Source of the DNA: Candidatus Moraniibacteriota bacterium
GTDB taxonomy: Bacteria > Patescibacteriota > Minisyncoccia > Moranbacterales > UBA2206
Length of the DNA: 64,000 nt
Assembly: GCA_037137555.1 (NCBI GenBank)
Contig: JBAXKA010000002.1
Coordinates: forward strand, 3,133 to 67,132
Reading direction: 5' to 3'
Position numbers and translations under genes: made by a program. The notes under the pieces were generated by a model. That model saw only the letters and a list, made by a program, of their open reading frames with translations. It was not told where the DNA came from and ran no database searches. Each line of letters opens with the position of its first letter. Positions within the stretch are counted from its first letter, which is position 1. Below, one piece after another: positions 24,860 through 46,301 of this stretch.

Positions 24860-24997
24860 ATGAGCGTAACATATAAACCCAAAAGTATAAAGAGAAAAAG
24901 GAGTCATGGCTTTATTGAAAGAAATAGTACTGCTTCTGGCCGAAATGTTTTAAAAGCAAGAAGAAGAAAAGGTCGTGCTAAACTGACAACAGTTTAA
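24860..24997 (+). CDS. rpmH: 50S ribosomal protein L34
   Basis: 45 aa '[45 protein letters not shown]', close to the L34 consensus. It was not in the ORF track because it is under 60 aa. Confidence 0.9.
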
Positions 24998-25021
24998 TTT
25001 TTTAATTTTTAAAATCAGGCA

Positions 25022-25369: not shown

Positions 25370-25370
25370 A

Positions 25371-26159: not shown

Positions 26160-26197
26160 TATTTAGATAATTAACAGTTTAAATATAGTTAAACCAT

Positions 26198-26677
26198 ATG
26201 GAACAGAAACAGGAAAATGTTGAAGGTGTGATCGTGGCAATAGTGGAAAGTTTGCTTTCTAGAATGGGTTTTTCCGCTAGCGTTGAGGCTAAGAAGGCAG
26301 AGGGTGTGGACGGTGCGATTGTTTGTGATATAAAAACAGAAGACTCTAGTTTTTTAATTGGTCAATATGGTTTAAATTTGCAATCATTGCAACATATTGC
26401 CAGAGTAATGATTCGAAAAAAGATTGTTCAACCAATTAATTTTATCCTTGATGTTAACTCTTATCGGCAAGAAAAAAATGATTCTGTTATTCGCTTAGCA
26501 AAAAACCTAGCTCAAGAAGCAATAATTGAAAAGCGTGAAATAACTATGCGGCCAATGACGGCCTATGAAAGACGCATTGTGCATATGGAATTATCGAAAA
26601 ACGATCAAATTAAATCAGAAAGCATTGGCGAGGGTGAATCTCGGCGCATCGTGATTAAGCCATTAGAAATAGTTTAG
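26198..26677 (+). CDS. jag: Jag/KhpB-like RNA-binding protein (KH + R3H)
   Basis: C-terminal R3H 'AYERRIVHMELSK' and position after yidC. Confidence 0.8.
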   Translation: MEQKQENVEGVIVAIVESLLSRMGFSASVEAKKAEGVDGAIVCDIKTEDSSFLIGQYGLNLQSLQHIARVMIRKKIVQPINFILDVNSYRQEKNDSVIRLAKNLAQEAIIEKREITMRPMTAYERRIVHMELSKNDQIKSESIGEGESRRIVIKPLEIV

Positions 26678-26705
26678 TAAAGTTTATTTTTTTAGATATT
26701 TTATT

Positions 26706-28124
26706 ATGGTTATTGCCAGAAAAATAGCCTATAATGTGCTTGTAAGTAGCATCTCAAAAGTGCTTTCTACGGCGCTTGCTTTGGTTTCAATTGGTTTTAT
26801 TACACGCTATTTAGGCAAGGAAGGTTTTGGTGATTATGCAACAGTTTTAGCTTTCTTGGCTTTTTTTTCAGCCATTTCCGATTTAGGCTTATATCAATTT
26901 TCAACAAGAGAAATTTCTCGTCCTGGTGCGAATATTGAGAAAATTATGGGCAATGCTTTCGCTATGCGGGTGGTTTCTTCACTAGTTATTTTTTTGTTTT
27001 CATTTGTTTTAATTATATTTTTACCTTATTCGCAAGAAGTGAAATATGGCGTCGTGATTATTGCGGCGTCTTTTATTTTTTCTTCTGGCTATCAAATCCT
27101 CAATGGCGTGTTTCAAAAAAATTTAGCTATGGATAAAGTTGCTATCTCAGAACTTCTGGGAAAAATTGTGCAATTAGCCGTGGTGATTTTAGCCGTTAAA
27201 CTTAAGCTTGATTTCTCATGGATTATTGCCTCGTTGCTGTTTAATATGCTAGTTAGTTTTGTGTTGGTTTATTTTTGGTCAAAGAAATATCTCAAATTAA
27301 GCTTTCATTTTGATATCGCTTATTGGAAAAAATTTCTTTCTGAATCATACCCAATTGGCATAATGGCTATTGTGGTTTTTGTGTATTTTAAAGTTGATAC
27401 AATACTTTTGTCCTTTATTAAAAGCAATACCGAGGTGGGAATTTATAATGTGGCATATAAGGTTTTGGAAAATATCTCTTTTTTTCCCGCGATGATCATG
27501 GGGCTTATTTTCCCGATTATATCCCAGCATATTTTCAGCGATAAAAAAAGCTTTCTTGCTATTTCGAATAAAACCTTCAAGGTTTTTATGTTGCTGGTTG
27601 TGCCGTTGCTGGTGGGGACGCTTTTTCTTGCTAGTGATTTAATTTATTTAATTGGTGGAGCGGGCTTTTCTGAATCAATAGTTGTTTTGCAAATTCTTGT
27701 TTTTGCCTTAGTGGCAATATTTTTTGGTAGTTTCTTTAATGCTATTTTGATTGCTGGAAATTTACAAAAAAAATTAGTGTTTATTTTGTCAGCCGCGGCG
27801 ATTTTTAATGTTCTGGCTAATTTAATTTTTATCCCGTCTTTTTCTTATTTAGCGTCTGCTACGATTTCGGTTATTACAGAAATTTTTGTGGCGGTAGCAG
27901 CGGGATATTTAGTGTTTAAAAAACTTAATTACTTGCCGAGAGCAGAAAAAATTGGCAAAATATTTCTTTCTGGCTTAGTAATGGCAATTTTTTTGTTTAT
28001 TTTTAGAACAAGCAATTTTTTTATTATAGGCTTTAGCAGTGTTTGCATATACTTGTTCGCATTAGGCATATTTCGAGCAGTGGAAATTTCTGAGATAACT
28101 AGTATAATTAATAAACATGAATAA
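26706..28124 (+). CDS. polysaccharide/O-unit flippase (Wzx, MOP superfamily)
   Basis: About 12-14 TM helices and N-terminal 'YATVLAFLAFFSAISDLGLYQFSTREISR', typical of polysaccharide biosynthesis proteins. Confidence 0.75.
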   Translation: MVIARKIAYNVLVSSISKVLSTALALVSIGFITRYLGKEGFGDYATVLAFLAFFSAISDLGLYQFSTREISRPGANIEKIMGNAFAMRVVSSLVIFLFSFVLIIFLPYSQEVKYGVVIIAASFIFSSGYQILNGVFQKNLAMDKVAISELLGKIVQLAVVILAVKLKLDFSWIIASLLFNMLVSFVLVYFWSKKYLKLSFHFDIAYWKKFLSESYPIGIMAIVVFVYFKVDTILLSFIKSNTEVGIYNVAYKVLENISFFPAMIMGLIFPIISQHIFSDKKSFLAISNKTFKVFMLLVVPLLVGTLFLASDLIYLIGGAGFSESIVVLQILVFALVAIFFGSFFNAILIAGNLQKKLVFILSAAAIFNVLANLIFIPSFSYLASATISVITEIFVAVAAGYLVFKKLNYLPRAEKIGKIFLSGLVMAIFLFIFRTSNFFIIGFSSVCIYLFALGIFRAVEISEITSIINKHE

Positions 28125-28986
28125 TCCATATCCTAAAGTTAATATTGTTGTTTTGAATTACAATGGCAAGCAGTGCTTGCCTGGTTGTTTAAAGAGTCTT
28201 TTTCAAGTAGATTATCCTAATTTTGAAATAGTTGTGGTGGATAATAATTCAGATGATGGATCGCTTGAACTGGCGAGGCAAAGTTTTTCCCGAGCGACAT
28301 TTATTAAAAATGAACAAAATCTAGGTTTTTCAGCTGGCAATAATGTGGGAATAAAATATTCCTTAGAAAAAATGGCTGACTTTGTGCTTTTGTTAAATAA
28401 TGATACGGAAGTGAAGAAGGATTTTTTAAAACAATTAATTCTCGCTACAAAAACAAATGACGCTGGTATTCTTGGTGCTTTGATTTTTTCTGGTAATAAT
28501 AAAGACATCTGGTTTTCTGGTGGAAAGATTGATTGGTTGCGTATGAAAGCGTTGAATGAGCAAGTATTAATAAAAAATAATAATAATTTTCCTGATTTTA
28601 TTTCTGGTTGTGCGATGTTAGTGCGAGCGGAAGTTTTTGCAAAAATTGGATTATTTGATGAGGACTTTTTTCTCTATTGGGAGGATGTGGATTTTAGTGT
28701 AAGAGCAAAAAAGGCTGGATTTGCACTTTCGGTTGTGGCAAACTCACATGTTCGCCACTTAGAATTAAGTGAAAACAAAAAAGCTAAAAAAATTTATTGG
28801 CTAGTGCTTTCTGGTTTGATTTTTTTTAGAAAAAATTCTGAAAAAATGCTTGGCTTTTGGGTTTTTGTTTATACGGTTTTGCGGAGAATAAAAAACTGGA
28901 ATGATGTACGAAAAAATAAAACAGCAATAAATTTGGCTGTGCAAAAGGCTTATGGGGATTTTGGAAAAGTGAAATGCGAAAAATAA
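28117..28986 (+). CDS. family 2 glycosyltransferase
   Basis: 'IVVLNYNG', 'EIVVVDNNSDDGS', 'NLGFSAGNNVGI' and a DxD-like 'NNDTEV'. Confidence 0.85.
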   Translation: MNNPYPKVNIVVLNYNGKQCLPGCLKSLFQVDYPNFEIVVVDNNSDDGSLELARQSFSRATFIKNEQNLGFSAGNNVGIKYSLEKMADFVLLLNNDTEVKKDFLKQLILATKTNDAGILGALIFSGNNKDIWFSGGKIDWLRMKALNEQVLIKNNNNFPDFISGCAMLVRAEVFAKIGLFDEDFFLYWEDVDFSVRAKKAGFALSVVANSHVRHLELSENKKAKKIYWLVLSGLIFFRKNSEKMLGFWVFVYTVLRRIKNWNDVRKNKTAINLAVQKAYGDFGKVKCEK

Positions 28987-29762
28987 AGCTTTCAATTATT
29001 ATTGTGAATTATCAGAGCCGAGCTTATTTGGAAAAATGCTTGGCTTCTATTTTTGCGAAAATTAATCTTACTTCGTCCTATGAAATTATTGTGGTCAATA
29101 ACGACATAAAAAGCGAACTTGATGGTTTGAATATTTTATTTCCCACTATAAAAATTATTCAGAACTCTAAAAATAATGGTTTTGGTAGTGCCAATAATCT
29201 TGGAGCAAAAGAGGCGCGAGGCGAAGTTTTATTATTTCTTAATCCCGACACGGAAATTATTACGCAAAATATTTCAAGTGTGTTGGCGGAATTTGAAAAT
29301 AATCAAGCACTGGGAATCTTAGGTTCTCGTATTATAACGACTGATGGAATGGTGCAAAGCTGGATTGCAGGAGCAAAAATAGATCTCTTGAGTGTTTTGG
29401 GTAATAATTTTAAAAAAACAAAAAACAAGCAATGCTGGCAAAACACAAAACAAACAGAAGTGTTTTGGGTGGCAGGAACAGCGATGTTTATCACTGAGAA
29501 ACTTTTTGGGCAACTTGGTGGCTTTGATGAAAAATTTTTTATGTATTTTGAAGATGTTGATCTTTGTAATCGAGCGCAGGCATTGAATAAAAAAGTGATT
29601 TATTTTCCAGATTTTTCTGTGTTGCATCACAGCGGAAAAAGTTTTTTGGCTAAAAAAAAGCAAAAAAAATGCTATTATCTTTCGCAGGATTATTATTTCA
29701 GAAAACATTTGGGTTTTTTTCAAGCAACGCTTTTAAAGCTATTGAGATTTTTTAGTTTTTGA
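28974..29762 (+). CDS. family 2 glycosyltransferase
   Basis: 'SIIIVNYQS', 'NGFGSANNLGA', 'LFLNPDTEI'. Confidence 0.85.
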   Translation: MRKIKLSIIIVNYQSRAYLEKCLASIFAKINLTSSYEIIVVNNDIKSELDGLNILFPTIKIIQNSKNNGFGSANNLGAKEARGEVLLFLNPDTEIITQNISSVLAEFENNQALGILGSRIITTDGMVQSWIAGAKIDLLSVLGNNFKKTKNKQCWQNTKQTEVFWVAGTAMFITEKLFGQLGGFDEKFFMYFEDVDLCNRAQALNKKVIYFPDFSVLHHSGKSFLAKKKQKKCYYLSQDYYFRKHLGFFQATLLKLLRFFSF

Positions 29763-31036
29763 TTTTTAATAAAATGTTGATTAAATTATTTTTTATTTTT
29801 TGTGCCTATTTACCATTTCAATTAGCACTAAATCCTAGTGCTGGTGTGGATATGGCAAGTGCTCGCGTTTTTATTCTCGTGTTATTTTTTGCGTGGTTGG
29901 CGGAAAAATTAAAGCAAAAAAAACTAGTGGTGCAAAACAATAAAACAAATTTTTTTCTAATAAGCTTTCTTTTTTTGAATCTTTTTTCTATAGTTGTTTC
30001 GCAAAACAGTGATTGGTCAGTGCGAAAGTTATTATTTTTATTTTCTGTTTTTCCGCTTTATTTTGTGGCATCAAACATAATCAAGACAAAAGCGCAGATG
30101 ACAAAAGCGCTTAAAATTTTAGTTTGGAGTGGTTTTTTTGTGGCAATATTGGGAATAATTCAATTTATTTCGCAGTTTATTTTTGGATTAAATGCGACAT
30201 ATCAATTTTGGGCAAATTATATTTCGCCAGTATTTTTAGGTGCGAATGTGACTGAAGCAGTCTTAAAAAATCCCAGTTGGCTGGTGAATATTTCCGGAGC
30301 GACTTATTTGCGATCAATCGCAACTTTTCCCGATCCACATATGTTGTCGTTTTTCTTGGGCATGCTTTTGCCTTTTGCTTTGGGACTTTTTTGGAAATTT
30401 AAAACTAAAATTTATTTAATTATTTTCTGCACGATGCTGGTGGCGGATTTACTGACTTTTTCTCGCGGGGGTTATCTTGGCTTGTTTGCCGGAATTTTAG
30501 TCACTATTTTTTTAGTATTAAATAAATTAAAAAAAGAAAATAAATTAAAAATTTTCTTGGCCAGTCTTGCGCTAGCTAGTTTTTTAATAATTCCGGGACC
30601 AATTTCTGAAAGATTTTTTTCTAGTTTTAATTTTAGCGAAGGTTCTAATCAAGGAAGAATTGAAACTTGGAAAAAAGCGATTGAAATTATTATTAACCAT
30701 CCGGCTTTCGGTGTGGGCATTGGTAATTACGCGCTGGAAATTAGTGCTACTGCCAATTATCGCGATCCAATTTATGCCCATAGCAATTATTTGGATATTG
30801 CGGCAGAAACTGGATTGTTGAATCTTTTTTTGTGGCTAGGCTTTCTTGGCTCTGTATTTTTTATGTTTTTGAAAAAAGCAAAAGATAGTTTATTTTTCTG
30901 TGCTAGTATTAGCATAATAATCTTTATGGCACATTCAGTCGTGGAAACCTCAATTTATTCACCAGTAGTTTTGCCATTATTTTTAATTATTGCCAGTTTT
31001 AATCATTTAACACAGCTTGATGAAAAAAATATTTAA
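29759..31036 (+). CDS. O-antigen ligase/polymerase-like (Wzy_C) membrane protein
   Basis: Polytopic protein. 'SRGGYLGLFAGILV' and 'AHSNYLDIAAETGLL' match the Wzy_C signature. Confidence 0.7.
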   Translation: MIFNKMLIKLFFIFCAYLPFQLALNPSAGVDMASARVFILVLFFAWLAEKLKQKKLVVQNNKTNFFLISFLFLNLFSIVVSQNSDWSVRKLLFLFSVFPLYFVASNIIKTKAQMTKALKILVWSGFFVAILGIIQFISQFIFGLNATYQFWANYISPVFLGANVTEAVLKNPSWLVNISGATYLRSIATFPDPHMLSFFLGMLLPFALGLFWKFKTKIYLIIFCTMLVADLLTFSRGGYLGLFAGILVTIFLVLNKLKKENKLKIFLASLALASFLIIPGPISERFFSSFNFSEGSNQGRIETWKKAIEIIINHPAFGVGIGNYALEISATANYRDPIYAHSNYLDIAAETGLLNLFLWLGFLGSVFFMFLKKAKDSLFFCASISIIIFMAHSVVETSIYSPVVLPLFLIIASFNHLTQLDEKNI

Positions 31037-32183
31037 GCTAGAGAATTTAATTTATTTAACTATTTTTGCTTTGCCGACTTATCTTTTGCGGTTTAATTTA
31101 GGTGGTTTGCCTGTGAATATGTTAGATTGTTTGCTTTTTATGTCTGTTCTTCTCGGGCTAGTTATTTATCGCAAAAAAATACAAGCTAAGTTGTTTTTTG
31201 AAAAAAATAAATTAATCTTTTTTTCTGTCAGCTTAATTTTTCTGGGCTTAATACTTTCGGTTTTAATTAATAAGAATTATGCTTTAAGTCTGGGAATAAT
31301 CAAGAGCTGGTTTGTTTTGCCAGTTTTGTTTGCTTTAATTGTGCGTTGTTTGCCGGGAGAAGCTAAATTTAAAAATATTTTTTGGGCATATTATTTAAGT
31401 GCTTTTTTTGTGGCATCAATTTCGCTTGTCTATTATTTTTCAGGCTTTATAACTTATGATCTGCGACTGCAAGGGTTTTATAATTCTCCAAATTATTTGG
31501 CGATGTATTTGGCACCAGCAATTTTTGTGGGTTATTATTTATTCTCAGAAGTCAAAATAAAAACAAAAGCTAAGTTATTAAGCTTGTTTTTTAATTTAAT
31601 TATTCTTTTTGCTTTATATTTAACTTATTCCTATGCTAGTTGGCTAGCAATTTTAATTGCGTTTGGTTTTGTTTTGTTGCTGGAAAAAAAACTAAACTGG
31701 AAAAAAAGCTTGTTTGTCGCCTTCTTTGCGCTGATGTTGTTTTTTTCTCAGCTAGAAAATAATAAATTTTTTAATCTCATGAATTTCAATGGTCGCTCAT
31801 CTTTTTCTTCGCGAATAATGATTTGGCAGTCGGCCGAAAAAATAGGGAAAGATAATTGGTTTTTAGGCATTGGCATTGGCAATTTTCAAGAAAAATATCT
31901 AGCTTATCAAAAATATTTTCCAACTTATTTGGAATGGGACGTGCCTCATCCACATAATTTATATTTGGCATTTTGGCTTTATGGTGGAGTTTTCGGCTTG
32001 GCTGGTTTTCTAGGTTTAATTTATATTTGGTTTTCTGGTATTGTAAAAGCCAAAATAAATCCCAGCCTAAGATTTATGGTGCTGGGAATTATGTTCTATA
32101 TTTTATTGCATGGCCTAGTGGACACAACTTATTTTAAAAATGATTTGGCTGTGATTTTTTGGCTTTTATTCTCCTTGCTTTAA
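31017..32183 (+). CDS. O-antigen ligase/polymerase-like (Wzy_C) membrane protein, paralog
   Basis: Polytopic protein. 'HPHNLYLAFWLYGGVFGL' matches the Wzy_C-type motif. Confidence 0.65.
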   Translation: MMKKIFKLENLIYLTIFALPTYLLRFNLGGLPVNMLDCLLFMSVLLGLVIYRKKIQAKLFFEKNKLIFFSVSLIFLGLILSVLINKNYALSLGIIKSWFVLPVLFALIVRCLPGEAKFKNIFWAYYLSAFFVASISLVYYFSGFITYDLRLQGFYNSPNYLAMYLAPAIFVGYYLFSEVKIKTKAKLLSLFFNLIILFALYLTYSYASWLAILIAFGFVLLLEKKLNWKKSLFVAFFALMLFFSQLENNKFFNLMNFNGRSSFSSRIMIWQSAEKIGKDNWFLGIGIGNFQEKYLAYQKYFPTYLEWDVPHPHNLYLAFWLYGGVFGLAGFLGLIYIWFSGIVKAKINPSLRFMVLGIMFYILLHGLVDTTYFKNDLAVIFWLLFSLL

Positions 32184-32189: not shown

Positions 32190-33341
32190 TTAAAGCGTTA
32201 TTTTGTATAGCTTGCCGTCTGTGCGATTAGTAAAAAATAAAAGACTTTCATTGGCGTTAAGAAAAAGTTTTGTGGCATCATATTTGCTGGTGATTTTATT
32301 TAGATCTACAATGCGACTTTTTTCTCCTGTGGTGGTATCTATTTTCCAAAAAGTATCGGCTGTATGAAATTTTTCTTGATCATAATCATTAGGCATGATC
32401 GCAGAAGCAGGAATTTCTCCTGGCAGAGCACAATAAAGCGCTTTATTATTTGCCAACCAAACACATTTTGAAACAAGTGTCGGCAAATCAAGATTGTGAA
32501 ATTCCCCACCATTGGAATTAACAACGGAAAGTTGAATTTTTGTGCCACCTTTGACATCGCTATGACTAACCAGCGCTAGACTTCCATCATTGTTCCAGAG
32601 ATAATTAGCCCCAAAGACGCCTTTTAAAATAATTTTTTCTTCCCCGCCAATTATCGGAGCAGACTTGAAAGCGGTTTCAGAAAAAGCATCTGGTTTATTC
32701 CAAAAAGAAACGAGACTGCTTTTTGGAATTTGAGCGATGGAAATATCCCGAAAAGTAATATCGGCCAGCTTTATCCAATTAGTTCCATCTGGATCAGAAA
32801 TATTAAGTGTTGTTTTTTTGCTAGCCGAGTCAGAATATTTATAGAAAATACGATTATTGCTATCTTGCCAGGCAACTTCATCAACATTATTTTTTAGTGA
32901 AAAATTAGTTAGATCAGTGTAATTGTAATAATAAAGACTAGCTAATCCGGCACGGACGAATTTCGTGATCACTTTGTTTTTATCCGGCGACCACGAAACA
33001 AAAGTAAGTCCAAGCAATTCTTTGTCAGAAAAAGTTCTTTTATTATTGCCATTAAAATCAATTTGATAAACTCGCCCACTATTTTTAGCATAATATTTTA
33101 TGGCTTCTGTTCCATTGGCAAGCGTTGGTGCAAGCACAGCCTCATCTGAAAGCGCCACAATCGCTTCAGTGCTAATTTTTGGCTGAACAGTTGGTAGGAT
33201 AACTACCGGTGCTTCTTTTTTTGGTGTTAGCGGAATTTCTTCGGCTGGAGATTTAAAGGCTAAATTATAAATACCAAAAAATAAAAGAGCAACGCAAAAA
33301 AGCGTGAGAGAAATAAAAAAGATTTTTTTATTTAGTGACAT
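32190..33341 (-). CDS. membrane-anchored exported hypothetical protein
   Basis: N-terminal TM/signal followed by a 340-aa hydrophilic domain. It is the last gene of the minus-strand secretion island. Confidence 0.5.
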   Translation of the reverse strand: MSLNKKIFFISLTLFCVALLFFGIYNLAFKSPAEEIPLTPKKEAPVVILPTVQPKISTEAIVALSDEAVLAPTLANGTEAIKYYAKNSGRVYQIDFNGNNKRTFSDKELLGLTFVSWSPDKNKVITKFVRAGLASLYYYNYTDLTNFSLKNNVDEVAWQDSNNRIFYKYSDSASKKTTLNISDPDGTNWIKLADITFRDISIAQIPKSSLVSFWNKPDAFSETAFKSAPIIGGEEKIILKGVFGANYLWNNDGSLALVSHSDVKGGTKIQLSVVNSNGGEFHNLDLPTLVSKCVWLANNKALYCALPGEIPASAIMPNDYDQEKFHTADTFWKIDTTTGEKSRIVDLNKITSKYDATKLFLNANESLLFFTNRTDGKLYKITL

Positions 33342-33350: not shown

Positions 33351-34298
33351 TTAATTATTTTGGCATTTTGTGGTGCTGACATGAATATGATTATATGATA
33401 CTGCTTCATCTTTCCAATATCCAGCCCCAGAATTTTTAGCGGCGGTAATGATGTTGTCAGCGGTCAGTCCTGTTGCAGTAGAAACATCAATTGCTTCAGA
33501 TTTTCCACCAACAGTCCCACCATAATGGCAAGAACTTTTTTTATGATGACAACACTCCGTGCTTGAATCATTAGTGCATTGTTTCCAAGTTGGGTTGTTT
33601 CTGTAACAGTCTACCCCACCACCATTATTATCAGAAACTGAATTGATCATCATTTTATCTCCAAGTAGATTCTTCATTTTTAACATTAATTCTTGCAATT
33701 CAGGAGAGGCATCGTTGCATTGAGCCTTAATGCTAGTTGTTTGAAATTTGAAATCTTCACACTTGAAAGTTGTTGTTGTTGGCGTTGTTGTGGTTGGTAA
33801 TACTCCAGTGGAAGAGCTTGTTGTGGTGCAAGAGAAAGTATGCCAATCTGTTTTTTCAATGCCAAGATCTGTTTTTGCTGAAAATAATGTGATAATAATT
33901 GTGTTAACAATAAGCCAAGCACCCAACATTAAAGCGAAGCCAATCAAAACAGCCCCAACAATGTCTTTGGCTTGTTTGGTGAGTGTTGGGTTACCGGAAG
34001 AAACAATATAAATTATACCTGCAATGGAGATTGCAGTAATAGAAAGAGGAATTAATAAAGTATTCATTGCCCAATCGAGGATGCTCTGAATACCAACAAT
34101 TAAATGACAAAGTGTGCAGGGATCGGTAGTAGTAATTCCACAAGAAACAATACCAGCACTTGCAATTCTTGGCAGAGCAAAGAGAAAAATAAAAATACTA
34201 AAAAATAAAAAGACAAATTTATTGAGGCTAATTTTTTTAAACATAATATTTTTTTTAGGTTTTTTAACTATTTTGGAAAAGTTTTTCCGTTGGGACAA
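33351..34298 (-). CDS. pilin-like (TrbC/VirB2-type helical hairpin) protein fused to a Thr-rich linker and a Cys-rich LAS/M15-like peptidase-like domain
   Basis: Signal/TM, then 'AISIAGIIYIVSSGNPTLTKQAKDIVGAVLIGFALMLGAWLIV', paralogous to the hairpin in 34732..35622. The C-terminus has 'SCHYGG...SEAIDV' and 'NHIHVS' (H...D, HxH). Confidence 0.5.
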   Translation of the reverse strand: MSQRKNFSKIVKKPKKNIMFKKISLNKFVFLFFSIFIFLFALPRIASAGIVSCGITTTDPCTLCHLIVGIQSILDWAMNTLLIPLSITAISIAGIIYIVSSGNPTLTKQAKDIVGAVLIGFALMLGAWLIVNTIIITLFSAKTDLGIEKTDWHTFSCTTTSSSTGVLPTTTTPTTTTFKCEDFKFQTTSIKAQCNDASPELQELMLKMKNLLGDKMMINSVSDNNGGGVDCYRNNPTWKQCTNDSSTECCHHKKSSCHYGGTVGGKSEAIDVSTATGLTADNIITAAKNSGAGYWKDEAVSYNHIHVSTTKCQNN

Positions 34299-34708
34299 AA
34301 ACTGAGACGATAATTTATTCCGGAGGCATTTTCATTCACATCAAATGGCACACCCAGAGAAACTTTTAATTTACAGGCATCTGCTTGGCTTATATTTAAG
34401 GTGGTTAATAAATCTTTTTCTGCCATGTCTCTGGCTAATTGAATATCAGTATTAAGTATAGCAATAATAAATCCCTGATCTTGCGGATAGTAATCAATGG
34501 AGTAATTAGCATTTTCTTTAAAATTGACACCACTCAATGAAAGCGGTTTTTTATTTGGAAGCGTGGCGGGATTGATAATAGAAACTTTTCCTGTTGGTGT
34601 TTTGATGGTTAGCTGGTTGCTATTTTTTGAAAAAATAAAATAAAAAATTAAAATTAATAATAATCCGCCAAACGAGATAAACAAAATTTTAGCTGTTTTT
34701 GTGTGCAT
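34268..34708 (-). CDS. small exported hypothetical protein
   Basis: N-terminal TM/signal, 146 aa, inside the island. Confidence 0.45.
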   Translation of the reverse strand: MHTKTAKILFISFGGLLLILIFYFIFSKNSNQLTIKTPTGKVSIINPATLPNKKPLSLSGVNFKENANYSIDYYPQDQGFIIAILNTDIQLARDMAEKDLLTTLNISQADACKLKVSLGVPFDVNENASGINYRLSFCPNGKTFPK

Positions 34709-34731
34709 ATTGTTTTTTTAAAAAAAAATGA

Positions 34732-35622
34732 TTATTTGGGAAATCCGCACTTACTATTTGCTCCCCATGGCCCCCATTTTGCTCCATTATTAGAAAGCTT
34801 ACAGGCTGTTTGAATATTGCAAGCAGCGGTTGTGGCAGCGGTTACGCAACTTGCATAATTTGATTTTTGAGTACAATTATGATTAGCATTCTTACCGCCA
34901 GTATACATTGGTGCTGCGGCAGAAGTGGCACAGGTTGTTGTTGGACAGGAACTGCCACTAAGATTATGAGCAGAAAGATTTATTTGAAATAAACCAAGAG
35001 AAACAGGAAAATTATCAGGTTGACATTTGTCTCCACTTTGCTTGCTTTCTTTTCCAGAGCTTTCTCCCATACAAATCGCCGAAGCCATTGCAGCATTGTC
35101 ACCAAAGCAAGTTTTTCTAAGATTTTCAATAGAGCATGGTCCGGAAGCGGCTGGTTCGCATTTTCCTGTTCCGCTAGTGCTGCCACTGCCACTCCCGCTC
35201 CCACTACTTCCACCGGTGCTTCCACCACTACTGCTTTGTGGCAACGAAATACCTACAATATTAACCAATTCAGGATTGATAGTATAAAGAAGCACATACG
35301 AAGTGAGTGCAAGGATTAAGCCAGCAATAGCATCAAAAATAATTCCTTTAGCTTTTCCTGTGGCACTGGTATTTCCGGCACTGGTAATATACATAAAAGC
35401 ACCAACAGAAATCATCAACATCGCCGAGATGCCAACTGTCCACAAACCAAATTTATAAATTGTTAAAATATATAACTCATAGGAATCCGGCCGACCAAAT
35501 CCAGGAATTTCTTCCATTGGGGAATACTTATAAGCATCCACTGCTAATACTAAAAGAGGACTAAAAAGCAACACAAAGAAAAGTGCGATGGTTGCGATTT
35601 TTTGTTTTAGTTTAAAATTCAT
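34732..35622 (-). CDS. pilin-like (TrbC/VirB2-type helical hairpin) protein fused to a Gly/Ser linker and a Cys-rich lysozyme-like/lytic-transglycosylase-like domain
   Basis: 'MISVGAFMYITSAGNTSATGKAKGIIFDAIAGLILALTSYVLLY' hairpin. The C-terminus has 'MGESSG....VSLGLFQIN', resembling the SLT ES...GLMQI motifs. Confidence 0.5.
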   Translation of the reverse strand: MNFKLKQKIATIALFFVLLFSPLLVLAVDAYKYSPMEEIPGFGRPDSYELYILTIYKFGLWTVGISAMLMISVGAFMYITSAGNTSATGKAKGIIFDAIAGLILALTSYVLLYTINPELVNIVGISLPQSSSGGSTGGSSGSGSGSGSTSGTGKCEPAASGPCSIENLRKTCFGDNAAMASAICMGESSGKESKQSGDKCQPDNFPVSLGLFQINLSAHNLSGSSCPTTTCATSAAAPMYTGGKNANHNCTQKSNYASCVTAATTAACNIQTACKLSNNGAKWGPWGANSKCGFPK

Positions 35623-38581
35623 TGGTGTTTGTTTTGGGTAAAATAAAAAAAATAATTTTTATGGCAAGAATAATGGCGAAGCCGGAAAGAACAATGCGGA
35701 AAAGAAAAGCGATATAGTTGGGAATGCCGGAAGAAACAGTGGCAAAAATTTTCTTGGAAGAAGTTTCTTTTTGAGCTAGTGGAGCAATATCCGTCATTTC
35801 AATTTCAATATTGTGTGTCAGCTTCTTCTCATAGAATTCATTATAACTGATATTCCAATATTTGTTAAGTTGTTTTCTTATGGGATTTTCTGCTTTATAG
35901 ATAGTGGCAAAAGAAATAAGATATTTTTCGCCACTTTCTTTGGGCGGAAGGGTTAATTTTCCATAATTTTGTGTGTCGATTTTATAGCCATAAGTTGTGG
36001 CATTGTCGGCATTAATGATTACGCCGTCAATATTCCATTGATAGGGACAAGTAGATAGCCCATCTTCCTTGTCGGCATCACCATCATTATTATCACCATT
36101 AGTAAATTCTTTTTTTGCCGCTGTTCCTGAAAAATCTGGAGTTAGAACGATATCATAGCCCACTAAGGCTTGAAATTTTATTTCACTGCGATCTTCATAG
36201 TATTTGTTATCAAAATCCTGGTAGTCGCCTAGTTTAATGCCCCTGCAAGTTTGATTGCCGGAAGCATCTTTATTGTCAGTGTCCGTGGCTTTTGTGCTAT
36301 CATATTTTGGCACAATTTTTACTTCAGGAACGGTAATCTGAAAAACTTTTGTTAATTCAATTCTTTTGCCGGTTTCTTTATTGAGTGCGGACAACCCGAT
36401 CGTATATTTGTCGCCGATACCTTTGAGAATTGGAAAATAAGTGCGGTTTGTGGATTTTCCAATGTTGTCAGTAGTAGTAGTGCCATCATCAATGCATTTT
36501 TCGAATTGTTGATCTGGGCAAACTTGAGTAGCGCCATCGAGCGTCCAAAGAAACTCAGTGTATTTTTCTGTGCCAGTATTATCAAAAACTACTCCAATCA
36601 TTTCATCTTTTGCGACTTCGCAAACAGCTGCTTGTGGAAATGTTAAAGTAATTTTTCCGTCAGCGTCTTTCGTTGGAAGTGTAGTGAGGCATCTTTCTCC
36701 CGCTAGTTCGCCATCGTAGGTGCTTTCGGCTGATGGTTTTGGTGCTAGGTAAATAATTTCTGGTTCATTCGGATCTTTCGTTTTATATACTGCTGTGGCT
36801 GTATAAACCCTGAGTGTTTCCGTGGAAGAAGATATTGACAGTGTTACATCGGCATGTCCTTCTCGTTCACCACCTTCCGAAAGTGTTTCCTTGGCGGTTA
36901 CTTTTATTTTAAGATATTTTGGCAGTTTGTCTGTAGTTGTGATATCTTCAAAATCATCATCCTTAAAATTAAGATTAAATTTAAGCGTAGTTACGCCTAG
37001 TCCGGACATTTGCGTGGCGCTAATATCTTTTGGTATTTCTTTAAGTGCTATCCAATTGTCTGGATCAGCTGGATCTTCGCCAGCAAAAATTTCCCAAGTA
37101 TAATTAAGGGCATTTTCATTGGTGGGATTAGTTGTCGACGAGGTGAAAGTTACTTCATCACCGTTTTTGCTGTCGCTTGTATCATTGATGGGATTTTCTG
37201 GCAAATATTTCAGTGAGACATCTAGTTTTTCAGTTGTGCCACCACCTTCGGAAGGAGAAACAAGATTGCTTTCAAGGCAAGCATTTAAATCATTATCATC
37301 CATGCCTGTTGATCTGATTGTTATATTAGTATCGGAGCCTGTGCAGGTATATGTGGCACCGTCTTCATTTATTGTTCCGCCCTGAGTATATGTGCTTGTT
37401 GGGCAGGTTGAAGTATAATTGAATAAATCTGGTGGAATGATGGTGGTTATGAGCGTGGCCGGGTTAGTGTAGGACACAACGGTTTTAGTGATGGTCATTG
37501 TTCGGAGCATAATATTGTCATTGATTTTTGTGTCAGGAAGGGTTTTTTGCGTGGTAGTAGTTGTAACAGTGGAAGTATAGTTTGTTTCTGAGTGTTGGGT
37601 TGGTGGTGTTCCGTCTGTGTGCGTGTTTAGAAAAACTTGTGTTGTTGGACCAATTATTTTTGGATAACCAGTAGAAGGATCCATGTCCTTTGGTTCGCAA
37701 GTATTTTTGCTAAATGCCCACATTGTTCTGTATGATGAATCTGGCTCTTGGGTTGGTTGAATGGCGGCACCTTCCACAACAACACCAACTTGATCTCCAG
37801 CCGTAAAAGGAAAAGTGATTGTGTTTGCACCGAGTCCGGCAACATTAGCTTCGTCAGTATTTCCAGTGCTGGCAGTATCTTTGTTATTGGGATTAGTATG
37901 CCAAAACTGTTCTTCACTAAGACTAAATTTACCATTCGATCCGCCAGTTGTATCTCCGGGTGCATTAGGAAAAAGATGCTTGCACTCTTTTAGTTCATAG
38001 TCATCACCAGTTTTAACATTGTGCACAAAACAGTGCTCTGGTTTTCCTCGTTGATCATCACCACCAAAAACTGCTTTATAACCATCATCATCAGTATCTG
38101 CTTTATACACATCTGCTGGCGGTTGCCAAACAAAATCATCATTAGCGAGAATGCGGGCGGCTCTAACTTTATAATCTTCGATATCAACTTTGCCATTACC
38201 ATCTGAATCACATTTCGCTTTGTCCTCAGGGCAAGCGGCACCTTTAATATACCAAGTAAAATAAAGATTTTCAGTGGTGTTGATGAAATAGGTTGGCATG
38301 GCAGTGACGGTGACTTTTTCTCCCGGGACGGGATCAGCAGGATCGAAGGTGAGTGAAACCATTGGAGGATTTATTTTTCTCCTCGCAACATTAATGGTTT
38401 TCATGGTGTTTTTTAACTCATTTTTATCAACACCCAGATCGCTCATAACTGAATCTGTTACTTCGGTAGGATTTGCTAGTGAAAAAAGAGCAGCATAGGC
38501 AGGTAAGGCTGTAAGTGAGAAAATATTTAAAATAACCAAGCAGGTGATGATTATTTTTTTTAATTTTTTTTTAATTTTCAT
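35612..38581 (-). CDS. large (989 aa) Thr-rich surface protein with signal peptide and C-terminal TM anchor
   Basis: N-terminal 'LTALPAYA' signal, a Ca-binding-like 'DSDGNGKVDIEDYK', long Thr/Asn-rich segments and a C-terminal hydrophobic anchor. Confidence 0.6.
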   Translation of the reverse strand: MKIKKKLKKIIITCLVILNIFSLTALPAYAALFSLANPTEVTDSVMSDLGVDKNELKNTMKTINVARRKINPPMVSLTFDPADPVPGEKVTVTAMPTYFINTTENLYFTWYIKGAACPEDKAKCDSDGNGKVDIEDYKVRAARILANDDFVWQPPADVYKADTDDDGYKAVFGGDDQRGKPEHCFVHNVKTGDDYELKECKHLFPNAPGDTTGGSNGKFSLSEEQFWHTNPNNKDTASTGNTDEANVAGLGANTITFPFTAGDQVGVVVEGAAIQPTQEPDSSYRTMWAFSKNTCEPKDMDPSTGYPKIIGPTTQVFLNTHTDGTPPTQHSETNYTSTVTTTTTQKTLPDTKINDNIMLRTMTITKTVVSYTNPATLITTIIPPDLFNYTSTCPTSTYTQGGTINEDGATYTCTGSDTNITIRSTGMDDNDLNACLESNLVSPSEGGGTTEKLDVSLKYLPENPINDTSDSKNGDEVTFTSSTTNPTNENALNYTWEIFAGEDPADPDNWIALKEIPKDISATQMSGLGVTTLKFNLNFKDDDFEDITTTDKLPKYLKIKVTAKETLSEGGEREGHADVTLSISSSTETLRVYTATAVYKTKDPNEPEIIYLAPKPSAESTYDGELAGERCLTTLPTKDADGKITLTFPQAAVCEVAKDEMIGVVFDNTGTEKYTEFLWTLDGATQVCPDQQFEKCIDDGTTTTDNIGKSTNRTYFPILKGIGDKYTIGLSALNKETGKRIELTKVFQITVPEVKIVPKYDSTKATDTDNKDASGNQTCRGIKLGDYQDFDNKYYEDRSEIKFQALVGYDIVLTPDFSGTAAKKEFTNGDNNDGDADKEDGLSTCPYQWNIDGVIINADNATTYGYKIDTQNYGKLTLPPKESGEKYLISFATIYKAENPIRKQLNKYWNISYNEFYEKKLTHNIEIEMTDIAPLAQKETSSKKIFATVSSGIPNYIAFLFRIVLSGFAIILAIKIIFFILPKTNTNEF

Positions 38582-39249
38582 CGCGTAAGATAAATAATAT
38601 AACTATCCAAAATTATTATAGCAAAAATACTCATAAAATACGAATAGAAAAATGATTTTGTTTTGTAGGCGAGAAATCCGGCTGTGACGGAAAGCAAAAT
38701 GAAGGGAGCGGATTGCCAAGAAAAAGCATTTGTGAGAAAAAGTGTAGCAAGAAATAAGCTTGTTTGAGCGGAAATTGCCAAAGAAGCTATTTTTTTTTGA
38801 AAAAGTGAAAGAATAAAACCTTGAAAAAAATAACTAAAAATAAAAATACTTAAATTGACAATAAATAATTCATAAACTAAAAATAACCAGAAATTGTTTT
38901 TGATATAATTTGGCAAAACATAAACAGTATTGAAATCTGTATAATTAAGCATTAAATAAAAAAGCAAAAGAGTGAAGAAAAAAGTGCCTATTCCCCAGAT
39001 CAAGCCAATTGATTTATTTTTTAGATTCCAGCCAAAATCAGCCAGCTTTTTTTGGAGAATGATTTTTGTGTAAGCCACTGGCAGAAGAATAAGAAAAAAT
39101 AAATTAGCCGTTATTTTTTGGGCGGAATTTTGGGTGGGAAAAACAAGACTAAAAAAAAGGCAAAGGGCAATCACGCCAAGACTAACCAAAAATTCTCGGT
39201 CAAGCCAAGAAAGTTTTTGTTTTTTTTGTGGGTAGATTGGTTGATACAT
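38578..39249 (-). CDS. polytopic membrane protein, hypothetical
   Basis: About 6 TM helices, inside the island. Confidence 0.45.
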   Translation of the reverse strand: MYQPIYPQKKQKLSWLDREFLVSLGVIALCLFFSLVFPTQNSAQKITANLFFLILLPVAYTKIILQKKLADFGWNLKNKSIGLIWGIGTFFFTLLLFYLMLNYTDFNTVYVLPNYIKNNFWLFLVYELFIVNLSIFIFSYFFQGFILSLFQKKIASLAISAQTSLFLATLFLTNAFSWQSAPFILLSVTAGFLAYKTKSFFYSYFMSIFAIIILDSYIIYLTR

Positions 39250-39258
39250 GTGGTTTTT

Positions 39259-39795
39259 TTAATTTTCTTCTTCTTGCTCCTCGGCTTGTTCTGATTGGGT
39301 TTCTTTTCTTTCTTGTAAAATAAAAACATAAATCAAAAAAGTTGTAACGGTTTCCAGTGGCAAGAAATTCAAAATAGGAATCATCTCAAGCAGGTTGCCA
39401 AGAAAAAGGGTGATGAGTTTTTTTTTCCCAAAAAATTTTTTCACTCCCGAAACGAGCATTGCCATAATGGTCATAATGAATAGAAAAGGCGTCAAGAGTG
39501 TTCCAATAAAACCAGCATCAAAAATATCTTTAAGTCCGGACAATATAATAGTCAACAGAAAAAATATATCGATAACTTGAATAAAGCTGATCAGAGAGAC
39601 TGCTGACGAAACATCTTTAGCTATTTTTTTGGCATTTTTGGCCATTGACTTCAAACTTTTTTTGGGTTTATTGTCTTCATCAGCGGTTTTGTTCTGATCT
39701 TGTTTCTCTGCGTCTTTTTGTTCTGGTTGTTCGGCTTGTGGCGTAGATCGTTCTTGTTCTAGATTTTTTTTATGGTCGTCTTCTTCTTGAGACAT
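39259..39795 (-). CDS. membrane protein with acidic/lysine-rich N-terminal tail, hypothetical
   Basis: An N-terminal charged low-complexity region followed by 3 TM helices. Confidence 0.45.
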   Translation of the reverse strand: MSQEEDDHKKNLEQERSTPQAEQPEQKDAEKQDQNKTADEDNKPKKSLKSMAKNAKKIAKDVSSAVSLISFIQVIDIFFLLTIILSGLKDIFDAGFIGTLLTPFLFIMTIMAMLVSGVKKFFGKKKLITLFLGNLLEMIPILNFLPLETVTTFLIYVFILQERKETQSEQAEEQEEEN

Positions 39796-39806
39796 AAGGT
39801 TTAATT

Positions 39807-41657
39807 TTAAGCTTGCTCTTCTTCGCTAAATTCTTTTTTGGCTTTTTCAATATCCAAAAGTTGTGATGGATCGGTGGTGATGATTTGATCTTCAGAATAG
39901 GACGCCACAACTTTAATCGCAACATGATTTGTGCCAGCGAAAAAAATACCTTCGCCAACATTACTTTCTAGGAGCAAAAATTTCTCTTGATCAGTCAAAT
40001 AGAAAGTATCGGAAATAACATCAATACCGGCTGGAGATTGTTTTAATAATAATTGCAAAGAAGAATTGGTCACAATTGCTTTGCCATAACGAGAAGACAA
40101 AAAGTCATTAACATCTTGCGTAATAGTTGTGAGGCCAGTGAAATATTTGCGACAACGCTTAGCAAGACCAAACAAAAATGAAGCGGCGTCTTCATATTTC
40201 ATCATAACCCAAGCTTCATCAACCAGAACAATGCGTTTTTTTACATTAGTGCGCATTTCATTCCAAACAAATTGTAGGATAATATACATCGCCACTGGAC
40301 GCAATTCTTCTTCCATATCGCGGATATTAAAAACAACGAGCTGGTTATCAACTTTAATGTTTGTGGCGTGATTGAGAAAGCCAGCAAAAATTCCTTCCGT
40401 ATATTTTTCCAAACGAACTGCTAAAACTTCTCCGCCGTCCAGACTACGCAAAACTTGATAGAGATCAGACATTGTGGGAAAAGCATCTTTTCCCAGTGTG
40501 TTGAAATCGGCTTCGGCTGTTATGTCTTTGATGCTGTATGTTTCATGAATAGCCCGATCCAAAACAGAATCTTCTTCTGGTGTAATTGATCCGAGCATAA
40601 TATGCAAAAGTCCCAAAAGATTGGCAATATTATTACGCAATATATCTTCCGGATCGTCATCTTCACCAACGCGAGGAAGATCAAAAGGATTGAGATGGCT
40701 GTTGGAATTGAGTGAAATTTTAATAAAAGTGCCTTCGATCGTCTCGCAAAGATGTTTATATTCATTTTCCGGATCAATAATAATCACATCAGTGCCGATC
40801 ATAATTGAACGCAAAACTTCCAGCTTGACAGTATAACTTTTTCCAGCACCAGATTTAGCAAAAACAACCATGTTGGCATTTTCCATTTGAAAACGATCAA
40901 AAATAATCAAACTATTATTGTGGCGATTGACGCCATATAAAATTCCCGTGTTAGATGAAAGCGTCGATGAAACAAACGGAAAGGTTGTGGAAAGTGGAGA
41001 ACTATTCATATTCATTCCCACATCTAATTCGTCATTAGCGAGAGGCAAACAAGAATTAAAACCTTGTTCGGATTTAAAAACGGCTGGTTTGACATAGATC
41101 AATTGAGCTTCAAGAATGGCTTCGATGCTTTTGATGCTTTTCGTTACGGCCTGTTCACTGTCGCCATAAGCGGTGATATAAAGTGAAAAACGAAAGAATT
41201 TTTCTGTGCCTTGTTGCAACTTATCTCGCAGTTCATCAATATCTTGTTGGGCAGTTTCCAAAGAAGGATCACGAATTAAACCTTTGCTTTGTTCGATTTG
41301 GATTTGCGATTCAACTTGCGTAGCACTTTTTTTGAGCGTTTTCAAGATATCATAAGTATCCACTGGATGGATAAACATAGAAATATCAATTGGCATATCA
41401 ATATTGATGATTGGAGAAAACCAATTGCTGTGCAAATATCTCGGATAAGCAATAATAAAAATTGTTTGGGCGATTGTTTCCCCGATGCGAATGGATTTTG
41501 GCATAATTTGAATGGCAGCGGGAGCAATAATATCATTGAGTCTGGCAAGGCCTTCTTGATAATATTTTTCTGATTCCAAAACGCTATCTTGCGGAGGAGC
41601 AATTTTTTTTTCCGAAGCGATATCAGTCGCATCTTTTTTGGCGAAAGGGTTGAGCAT
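39807..41657 (-). CDS. virB4: VirB4/TrbE/CagE-like type IV secretion ATPase, ATPase portion
   Basis: Walker A 'FAKSGAGKSYTV', Walker B-like 'RIVLVDEAW' and overall VirB4 C-terminal domain architecture. Confidence 0.8.
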   Translation of the reverse strand: MLNPFAKKDATDIASEKKIAPPQDSVLESEKYYQEGLARLNDIIAPAAIQIMPKSIRIGETIAQTIFIIAYPRYLHSNWFSPIINIDMPIDISMFIHPVDTYDILKTLKKSATQVESQIQIEQSKGLIRDPSLETAQQDIDELRDKLQQGTEKFFRFSLYITAYGDSEQAVTKSIKSIEAILEAQLIYVKPAVFKSEQGFNSCLPLANDELDVGMNMNSSPLSTTFPFVSSTLSSNTGILYGVNRHNNSLIIFDRFQMENANMVVFAKSGAGKSYTVKLEVLRSIMIGTDVIIIDPENEYKHLCETIEGTFIKISLNSNSHLNPFDLPRVGEDDDPEDILRNNIANLLGLLHIMLGSITPEEDSVLDRAIHETYSIKDITAEADFNTLGKDAFPTMSDLYQVLRSLDGGEVLAVRLEKYTEGIFAGFLNHATNIKVDNQLVVFNIRDMEEELRPVAMYIILQFVWNEMRTNVKKRIVLVDEAWVMMKYEDAASFLFGLAKRCRKYFTGLTTITQDVNDFLSSRYGKAIVTNSSLQLLLKQSPAGIDVISDTFYLTDQEKFLLLESNVGEGIFFAGTNHVAIKVVASYSEDQIITTDPSQLLDIEKAKKEFSEEEQA

Positions 41658-41682
41658 ATTTTTAAGCTTATTTTTTTTAAAT

Positions 41683-42369
41683 TTATTTTAGTTCCATTTT
41701 TTCTGTGTCGATATAGCCCTTAGTATCAAAGACTGTTGGGTTATAGGCATTGAATAATAATTCAATCAATTCTGGTGTTTTGAGTGGGGCGATGCGAACT
41801 CCAATGCCAGAAAGTCCGGCCGTGAGATGATCAACTCTTTGAAAAATTTGGCTCTTGTAGGTTTCAAAATTTTCTCTTTTTTCTAGAATATTTCTCTTGG
41901 GATTGAGCATGCTGGAAAAATTACTGAAAAAACTTTTTTCTTGATTTTCAATTGGAGCAAATGGCACAACTAAATAAAAAGTTTTGTCCATAATGTCAGA
42001 CATAGAAACCAATTGAGTGATAAAATTTTTATATTCAGAAATTTGCAAACGCATCAATTCGGTTTTTTGTTGTTTTTCTTTTTCGGTTAAAAACTCCACA
42101 TAAGAATCAATATTTAATTTTCGTGAGCTGATGAGGATTTGCAGGGGAAAATCAACCGAGTTGAGAAAATTTTGATATTGACTAATGATGGCTTCTTGTT
42201 CGTCAGTCGCTTTCAATTCAAAATTGATAGCAGAAACTTCCAGCACCGCCCGTAGCGATCCATTTTTGAGAACAATTACATCTTCTTTGACTTCCGCGAC
42301 ATCCAAATATTGTTGTGTTGGTGAAGCGGCTGCTTGTTTGGCGAGTTTTTGTGAATAAAGTTTTTCCAT
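41683..42369 (-). CDS. VirB4-like N-terminal domain encoded as a separate ORF
   Basis: 'VIVLKNGSLRAVLEVSAINFELKATDEQEAI' resembles the VirB4/TraC N-terminal region. It ends 25 nt upstream of the ATPase ORF, in a different frame. Confidence 0.55.
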   Translation of the reverse strand: MEKLYSQKLAKQAAASPTQQYLDVAEVKEDVIVLKNGSLRAVLEVSAINFELKATDEQEAIISQYQNFLNSVDFPLQILISSRKLNIDSYVEFLTEKEKQQKTELMRLQISEYKNFITQLVSMSDIMDKTFYLVVPFAPIENQEKSFFSNFSSMLNPKRNILEKRENFETYKSQIFQRVDHLTAGLSGIGVRIAPLKTPELIELLFNAYNPTVFDTKGYIDTEKMELK

Positions 42370-42373
42370 AGTT

Positions 42374-42769: not shown

Positions 42770-42793
42770 AAGCTTTATTTAAAAAATATTTTT

Positions 42794-44008: not shown

Positions 44009-44028
44009 TGTAGATGTGAAAAAAATAA

Positions 44029-46299: not shown

Positions 46300-46301
46300 A
46301 A

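Follow-up and report, generated by a model that had tools for sequence, protein, structure and literature searches.

Here we describe two neighbouring genes in a 64-kb stretch of DNA (the window; G+C content ~0.35) from a metagenome-assembled genome (MAG) of Candidatus Moraniibacteriota, a member of the ultra-small Patescibacteria (candidate phyla radiation, CPR). In both genes a two-helix hairpin resembling VirB2-like pilins of type IV secretion systems (T4SSs) is joined to a domain resembling enzymes that cut the cell wall. Gene A (33351..34244, minus strand) encodes the hairpin fused to a putative LAS-type zinc peptidase domain, and gene B (34732..35622, minus strand; 296 residues) the hairpin fused to a predicted lysozyme-like domain of the SLT_3 type. 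Both proteins are 100% identical to public records (WCK16_00575 and WCK16_00585, from a contig of 68.7 kb). Some 4 kb upstream of the two genes stands virB4, all within a conserved operon close to dnaA, in which the start of B overlaps the upstream gene by 11 nucleotides. The sequence-only reading that singled out the pair had placed A at 33351..34298, an open reading frame (ORF) that is present as listed, with a TTG start and 315 residues. However, the start is most likely the ATG at 34244, giving 297 residues, because the public record has that length and because the aligned N-termini of 50 homologues begin at this methionine. Conservation counts below refer to these 50 homologues for A and to a family of 62 for B.

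The AlphaFold2 models of A and B share one layout, in which a signal-peptide helix is followed by a long helical hairpin, a poorly ordered linker and a globular C-terminal domain, and a Kyte-Doolittle scan finds three hydrophobic segments in each protein, corresponding to the signal peptide and two transmembrane helices. Judging by the signal peptide, by the basic character of the loop and by the abundance of cysteines, the loop is predicted to lie on the inner side of the membrane and both hairpin ends, together with the Cys-rich domain, on the outer side. In A the hairpin spans residues 45-122 (33879..34112, minus strand), with helices at 45-81 and 86-122 around the loop SSGNPTLTKQAKD, as placed by AlphaFold2, by reciprocal profiles and by a match to the Pfam family T4SS_pilin (PF18895) over residues 52-116. 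In B it spans residues 48-116 (35275..35481, minus strand), with helices at 48-80 and 85-115 around the loop SAGNTSATGKAKG, as placed by AlphaFold2, reciprocal profiles and alignment. Compared directly by BLASTP, A and B show no significant similarity (best hairpin segment, E = 37), and the relationship emerges with family profiles: among the 242 ORFs of the window, the A-family hairpin profile matches ORF B (E = 1.5e-10), the B-family profile matches ORF A (E = 4.9e-9), and no third ORF scored with either. Across ~77 residues the alignment of the two hairpin families is nearly free of gaps, and they share an invariant G in the S-x-G-N turn, the K of A-K and a second G. This near-gapless alignment, the invariant loop residues and the family-level profile scores speak against chance similarity between hydrophobic helices, which we reject. 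The paralogy that the earlier reading had claimed is thus real by family profiles and restricted to the N-terminal module, while the C-terminal domains have no relationship to one another. The motifs quoted at the time are all present, namely YIVSSGNPTLTKQAKDI, 'CHYGG...AIDV...NHIHVS' and a Thr-rich linker in A, and YITSAGNTSATGKAKGI, 'GESSG...SLGLFQIN' and a Gly/Ser-rich linker in B.

A combined profile of the A and B hairpins was searched against 1.84 billion cluster representatives and returned 12,815 proteins at E <= 1e-10. T4SS_pilin was found in 128 of the 129 best matches scanned (best E 2.9e-71), and the TrbC/VirB2 family (PF04956) also in 34 of these 129 (best E 5.4e-17). T4SS_pilin is matched by 47/50 A homologues as well (best E 2e-11), with several orthologues reaching its curated cut-off, and both proteins have the layout of that family: a signal peptide and two long hydrophobic helices separated by a short, polar, basic loop. 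PF04956 itself matched neither A nor B. These profile results support assignment of the hairpin to T4SS_pilin, the family that has been used to define 'VirB2-like pilins' in Patescibacteria (PMC12102498). Many of the top matches of the hairpin profile (among proteins P0216-P0356) are polyproteins with two to eight tandem T4SS_pilin hairpins by local count, some of them with a C-terminal extension of 140-300 residues; one of 1775 residues (P0247) has up to 16 T4SS_pilin stretches according to HMMER.

The AlphaFold2 model of A has a mean predicted local distance difference test score (pLDDT) of 83.6. A predicted signal peptide occupies residues 1-30 (34155..34244, minus strand), overlapping a hydrophobic segment at 4-37, with a cleavage site placed from the sequence after PRIASA and before G. 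Just after it stands a P-C-G...C-T-L-C-H motif, of which C35, C43, C46 and H47 are kept in 47-50 of the 50 homologues. The helical hairpin is followed by a short beta-hairpin with invariant W134 and C139 and then a Thr-rich linker (together residues 123-160; 33765..33878, minus strand). Across residues 31-139 (33828..34154, minus strand), the CTLCH segment and the post-hairpin W..F.C motif contribute short strands that are paired in the AlphaFold2 model, and a disulfide or metal clamp may tie together both outer ends of A-type hairpins. Such a clamp would loosely resemble the head-to-tail cyclisation of T-pilin and TrbC.

The remainder of A (residues 161-297; 33354..33764, minus strand) is a Cys-rich domain, confidently modelled as globular (block-mean pLDDT ~77-98), in which H240, D253 and H288 are the putative zinc ligands. 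H234, H240, D253, H286 and H288 are kept in 49/50 homologues, and a Glu stands 3-6 residues ahead of H286 in 48/50. Its closest structural relatives are Hedgehog ligands, the Ply500 endolysin is among the structural matches, and the fold is similar to that of solved LAS members. Searched against PDB sequences, the A-family profile aligned with Sonic hedgehog (Shh) at the zinc motifs with a weak E of 0.06: 'S-C-H-Y-G-G...A-V-D-I' and 'H-V-H-V-S' of A pair with 'S-L-H-Y-E-G-R-A-V-D-I' and 'H-I-H-C-S' of Shh, so that H240, D253 and H288 correspond to the Shh zinc ligands H141, D148 and H183, and the LAS pattern of His, Asp and a His that is the second of an H-x-H pair is found in A. Pfam M15 and Hedgehog models gave no match for A or the 50 homologues at E up to 0.1, Foldseek with the whole A model returned nothing significant, and a homologue search with the C-terminal domain alone returned nothing. 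Given the negative Foldseek result on the whole model, we consider a LAS fold probable rather than certain for this domain. It departs from the textbook motif in an inserted loop of 6-7 residues between the first His and the Asp and in its many cysteines. The M15-like end that the earlier reading had proposed for A is in this way borne out by conserved zinc ligands, the Shh alignment and the fold, with atypical ligand spacing and without a Pfam match.

The model of B has a mean pLDDT of 82.4. An invariant Y-x-P-M-E-x-I-P-G motif precedes the hairpin, and a Gly/Ser-rich linker (residues 124-152; 35167..35253, minus strand), disordered with pLDDT below 50 throughout, leads to a Cys-rich C-terminal domain (residues 155-296; 34735..35160, minus strand) that is confidently modelled as globular (block-mean pLDDT ~88-96). 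This domain matches SLT_3 (PF18896) over residues 174-287 with 36.3 bits (cut-off 27; E = 7.7e-9), and structural comparison places it in the lysozyme/lytic-transglycosylase fold. E187, S188, D198, G210, Q213 and N215 are invariant in 62/62 family members, the last three forming part of a G-L-F-Q-I-N motif. The B-family profile found Cys-rich RNase A noise alone among PDB sequences. With a match above the curated cut-off, invariant catalytic motifs and the appropriate fold, the lysozyme-like or lytic-transglycosylase identity suggested earlier for this end of B holds. B may be either a hydrolytic muramidase, in which D198 could serve as a second carboxylate by analogy with lysozyme and EtgA, or a lytic transglycosylase. 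Compared with SLT_3 proteins, family-1 lytic transglycosylases, the type III secretion enzyme EtgA and C-type lysozyme, the domain of B is set apart by its many presumably disulfide-forming cysteines.

A scan of one genome per GTDB species yielded 79 related loci. The set used for local hidden Markov models (HMMs) consisted of 83 loci plus the window and includes four earlier loci, three of them duplicates. In this set we counted 133 hairpin genes, of which 31 carry SLT_3 as C-terminal partner, 25 an SLT domain (PF01464-like), 25 the A-type LAS domain and 32 another extension of at least 90 residues, while 20 stand alone with no partner. The group of 32 has no Pfam match; it comprises a domain with 16 members, a family of ten with M15-like motifs, a few divergent SLT-like domains and one NlpC/P60-like domain. 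The 16-member domain, of ~150-440 residues, often sits on the sole hairpin gene of its locus, which is then followed by a homologue of the 383-residue protein encoded downstream of A. The family of ten joins a B-type hairpin to a Cys-rich domain with the canonical motif E...W-P-P-T-V-x-H...S-x-C-H-x-N-G-T-C-A-D...Y-E...F-H-V; at the level of this motif it looks LAS-like, and its profile matched no PDB sequence and no Pfam family.

A glycosidase fusion is paired with a LAS fusion in 16 loci and with a stand-alone pilin in 11, and a single fused gene is the sole hairpin gene within 10 kb in 34/79 loci. The stand-alone A-type pilins have the P-C-G...C-T-L-C-H motif, the hairpin and the W..F.C motif just as A does, and by these features they are clear orthologues of the A hairpin, found at the same position in at least 12 loci. 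They stop inside the Ser/Thr-rich linker, in most loci 4-51 nucleotides before the next gene, with no LAS-coding remnant found, and on these grounds we reject the view that they are decayed fusions. Among B-type hairpins at 60-87% identity, some carry SLT_3 and others SLT. As the stand-alone pilins and this change of partner on similar hairpins show, hairpin and enzyme head are separate, exchangeable modules. The hairpin is also the better conserved of the two, with a mean pairwise identity of 0.61 against 0.45 for the enzyme domain in B and of 0.52 against 0.45 in A. Thirteen of the loci come from third-party-annotated MAGs titled 'uncultured Bdellovibrionales bacterium' that carry a typical Patescibacteria T4SS locus, and these titles are probably taxonomic mislabels.

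Genes A and B belong to a tightly packed minus-strand operon (with one 11-nt overlap and one 9-nt gap) that runs from ~48456 down to 32190. Assignments in the part upstream of B (35612..48456) rest on family searches and on orthologous loci with precomputed Pfam labels. As transcribed, the operon begins with two secreted proteins, followed by a VirB6/TrbL_3-like polytopic protein (44029..46299; TrbL_3 is carried by its orthologue), a 404-residue protein, a PrgI/VirB3-like protein (42374..42769), a TrsD/TraC-like protein (41683..42369) and the VirB4 ATPase (39807..41657). After virB4 come genes for a 178-residue membrane protein, a 223-residue polytopic membrane protein (38578..39249), a 989-residue secreted protein (35612..38581), B, a 146-residue protein (34268..34708), A and a 383-residue protein (32190..33341), all on the minus strand. 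The synteny is conserved in other Moraniibacteriota and in Parcubacteria, where the shared order is VirB6-like, a protein of ~350-375 residues, PrgI, TraC-like, VirB4, a protein of ~175-181 residues, an Rce1-like protein of 218-223 residues, a protein of ~950 residues, B, a protein of 146-176 residues, A and a protein of ~381-386 residues. Of the 61 species-level loci with enough flanking sequence, 38 have virB4 at 2.5-4.7 kb upstream of their first hairpin gene.

No neighbour accompanies the hairpin genes more constantly than the 383-residue protein, which has an N-terminal transmembrane segment and is present also where virB4 is not nearby: in 68/79 loci a homologue is encoded downstream of the last hairpin gene at a distance of no more than 1.5 kb (homologues in L005-L083; E values of 1e-70 to 1e-106 for those loci that were inspected). 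Pfam gave no match for it, and the PDB search gave a weak WD40-type match alone (E = 0.02), so that it may be a beta-propeller. The 146-residue membrane-anchored protein encoded between B and A (homologues in L001-L044) is unevenly distributed, as 17/26 SLT_3-type loci have its gene against 0/25 of the SLT type (Fisher p = 2.8e-7). Family searches with it gave no match, and it may serve the SLT_3 domain as a cognate partner, inhibitor or chaperone. The 989-residue Thr/Asp-rich protein, with a C-terminal membrane anchor and a stop that overlaps the start of B by 11 nucleotides, is kept upstream of the hairpin genes in most loci without a family match and may be an adhesin or a wall-spanning component. 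The 223-residue polytopic protein is likewise conserved, with its gene placed between virB4 and those for the hairpin proteins. The Rce1-like assignment comes from its orthologue in locus L001 (L001:5118-5789), which matches Rce1-like/CPBP with E = 5e-8, the window copy having no match above any threshold. One could speculate that it processes or regulates the pilin-hydrolase proteins.

Beyond the operon lie exopolysaccharide genes, jag, yidC, rnpA, dnaA (23235..24614) and dnaN. Within 21811..32183, the T4SS operon is separated from dnaA/dnaN by ~9 kb that holds rnpA, yidC, jag and the exopolysaccharide genes (Polysacc_synt, two Wzy_C and two glycosyltransferases, of which the glycosyltransferases are predicted by synteny with L001). 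A position beside dnaA agrees with the near-origin location reported for T4SS clusters of Patescibacteria (PMC12102498). Outside the operon, a separate wall-active protein with G5, DUF348 and DPBB (RlpA/Rpf-like) domains is encoded at 50995..51942 (minus strand), so that the genome has other candidate housekeeping wall enzymes.

Taken together, we favour, with moderate confidence, the explanation that A and B are own-wall hydrolases of the T4SS, docked to it through a VirB2-like pilin module. After Sec export and signal-peptide cleavage, each two-helix hairpin would sit in the cytoplasmic membrane with its conserved S-x-G-N...A-K loop towards the cytoplasm and both ends outside, and the flexible Thr- or Gly/Ser-rich linker would keep the disulfide-rich catalytic domain just beyond the membrane. 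B would cut the glycan strand, acting either as a lysozyme or as a lytic transglycosylase in which Glu187 is the acid. A would be a LAS zinc peptidase, with H240, D253 and H288 on zinc, and would cut the peptide stem or cross-link. Jointly they would open the peptidoglycan at the assembly site of the VirB4/VirB6/PrgI machine, to which the pilin module would recruit them via the contacts used by stand-alone pilins. Elsewhere this wall-opening job is filled by VirB1, PrgK or TraG(pIP501). That stand-alone orthologues exist and that the hairpin is better conserved than the enzyme argues that the hairpin is more than a passive anchor.

Several results weigh against this explanation. A and B themselves score 19.3 and 16.5 bits with T4SS_pilin, both under the curated cut-off of 26.6 bits. 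Against PDB sequences the hairpin profile returned spurious designed 'Pizza' repeat proteins and no solved VirB2 or TraA pilin, an hhalign comparison with Agrobacterium VirB2 (using an approximate sequence) was negative, and structural matches of the helical hairpin are non-specific. The likeness to TrbC/VirB2-type pilins that the sequence-only reading had noted stands as probable membership of PF18895 and as placement in a virB4/prgI operon; direct homology to classical VirB2 was not found. Where LAS proteins have an H-x6-D spacing, the enzyme domain of A has 12 residues between His and Asp, and the consensus of its family has 13. Linkage of the hairpin to T4SS genes is frequent and not universal, since no virB4 lies within 10 kb in 23 of the 61 loci with enough flank. 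Finally, the results fit action on the own wall as well as on a host wall, and the stand-alone orthologues and the conservation of the hairpin fit docking and a pilus armed with enzymes equally well.

In the latter alternative, the fused proteins would be pilus subunits, major or minor, extracted from the membrane by VirB4 and polymerised. With glycosidase and peptidase domains on its outside or at its tip, a pilus built from or studded with such VirB2-like subunits would drill through the wall of the host bacterium to which the epibiont is attached. The swapping of heads on a constant hairpin, observed here for SLT_3, SLT, two LAS types, an NlpC/P60-like domain and uncharacterised domains, would then reflect adaptation to host walls. 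The hairpin shows the family signature in full and exceeds the enzymes in conservation, stand-alone pilins with these hairpins are found at the same position, and the fused genes are the sole VirB2-like genes within the window, as a fused gene is the sole hairpin gene in 34/79 loci. The predicted topology has both ends of the hairpin outside the membrane, and the linker is long and flexible. In the F- and T-pilus structures, hairpin ends so placed form the outer face of VirB2-type pili. In addition, pilin genes are essential in Southlakia (PMC10633639). We nevertheless regard an armed pilus as unlikely: no T4SS pilus is known from this lineage, packing may be hindered if every subunit bears a 14-kDa domain, other parts of the genome could encode stand-alone pilins, and the parallel with own-wall enzymes of the VirB1/PrgK type is simpler.

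If A and B were instead housekeeping autolysins that remodel the cell's own wall in growth and division, the hairpin would be an anchor that resembles a pilin and nothing more, in keeping with its non-specific structural matches and with the loci that have no virB4 within 10 kb. We find this improbable, given that synteny with virB4, prgI and virB6 is kept across species and that the hairpin, which matches the profile of a pilin family, shows higher conservation than the catalytic domains. Moreover, stand-alone hairpin orthologues would be anchors with nothing to anchor, and the G5-DPBB protein is a separate candidate wall enzyme within the window. Slightly less credible still is that the C-terminal domains are catalytically dead and bind peptidoglycan or another glycan or peptide ligand in a Hedgehog-like manner, as T4SS adhesins. 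The Hedgehog ligands are indeed the closest structural relatives of the A domain and its H-to-D spacing is atypical, but the zinc ligands, the HxH pair and the nearby Glu are kept in 48-49/50 homologues, and the catalytic Glu-Ser of B is invariant. Prophage-type lysis proteins, with holin-like hairpins and endolysin domains, would account for a weak Phage_holin_8 match in one family member (E = 0.046) and for Ply500 among the structural matches. The locus is, however, chromosomal and syntenic across species, with the T4SS genes beside dnaA, no phage genes were seen nearby, and a Sec signal peptide and a strong family-level match of the hairpin to the pilin family are present; we therefore reject a phage lysis cassette and consider any lysis role of this kind extremely unlikely.

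The closest described relatives of own-wall hydrolases docked through a pilin module come from several systems. The pilin arrays of Southlakia epibionticum (SEML1_0014-0019) resemble A and B in hairpin family, in a virB4/prgI/virB6 cluster near dnaA and in having divergent paralogues side by side, and VirB2-like pilin genes are essential there (Wang 2023, PMC10633639). However, the described Patescibacteria pilins are stand-alone proteins of ~125-140 residues, whereas the A and B hairpins carry an enzyme domain of 135-140 residues on a linker, and we found no mention of pilin-enzyme fusions in the pilin-array literature (PMC10633639, PMC12102498). Also in Southlakia, SEML1_0006 (two lysozyme-like domains and a cysteine protease) and SEML1_0007 (M15B-like by structure) adjoin virB4 (PMC10633639), and the peptidase and lysozyme homologues just downstream of virB4 are reportedly essential (Quinonero-Coronel 2025, PMC12102498). 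These two have the same pair of chemistries beside virB4 as B and A, lysozyme-like and M15-like, and no pilin domain in the annotation table, the comparison being one of annotations and not of sequences.

VirB1-type hydrolases of monoderms (PrgK of pCF10, TraG of pIP501 and the CD419/TrsG families) are, like A and B, membrane-tethered and encoded in T4SS operons, and they combine glycan and peptide cutting for a presumed local opening of the wall, as we propose for A and B. In PrgK and TraG(pIP501) the tether is a plain membrane anchor. A and B differ from these two in dividing the activities between two proteins, in a predicted LAS zinc peptidase and in having a VirB2-like hairpin as the anchor. 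The PrgK/TraG type joins a lytic transglycosylase and a cysteine-, histidine-dependent amidohydrolase/peptidase (CHAP) on one polypeptide (PMC12102498). For the A domain, relatives are found across the Hedgehog/DD-peptidase fold, in the N-domain of Shh, the Zn DD-peptidase of Streptomyces albus (1lbu) and the L-Ala-D-Glu peptidase Ply500 of a Listeria phage (2vo9). The A pattern 'HH-x4-S-x-H-Y-x-G ... A-x-D' and 'H-x-H-x-S' aligns with 'HHSEESLHYEGRAVDI ... HIHCS' of Shh, while the H-x12-13-D spacing and the Cys-rich nature of the domain set A apart from LAS/Hedgehog members. A machine part covalently joined to a wall-cutting domain is familiar from FlgJ of flagella, from phage tail lysins and from VgrG3 of the type VI secretion system, where it directs cutting to the very site at which the structure grows or strikes; these proteins and machines are unrelated to A and B, and the analogy is functional only.

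Much of what is combined here is already known, including VirB2-like pilin arrays, T4SS-associated hydrolases, SLT_3 and the LAS fold. The earlier reading had taken the architecture to be undescribed. This is right as far as the literature goes, in that we found no paper mentioning PF18896 or a pilin-hydrolase fusion and that the main survey of Patescibacteria T4SSs treats VirB1 and VirB2 homologues separately without mentioning fusions (PMC12102498). It needs qualifying for public databases, in which pilin+SLT_3 and pilin+SLT are common among proteins with precomputed Pfam labels and are thus already implicit; NCBI gives some of these proteins the name 'pilin' or 'transglycosylase SLT domain-containing protein'. 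In the pilin+LAS fusion the enzyme part is a domain for which there is no curated model, a LAS/Hedgehog-like peptidase domain with H-x12-13-D spacing. That pilin hairpins are coupled recurrently, and in a modular way, to wall hydrolases of several classes would be notable without being categorically new.

In the one species of Patescibacteria tested, epibiotic growth requires the T4SS. Most Patescibacteria T4SS loci are without a recognisable VirB1 (Quinonero-Coronel 2025, PMC12102498). In this locus and 79 related ones, lytic domains are often found at the C-terminus of VirB2-like 'pilin' genes, and lytic domains hidden in this way would explain the scarcity of recognisable VirB1 and fill the apparent gap. 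Further uncharacterised C-terminal domains occur on the same hairpin, and the fusions raise a testable question, namely whether the pilins dock enzymes at the channel or carry them on a filament against the host wall.

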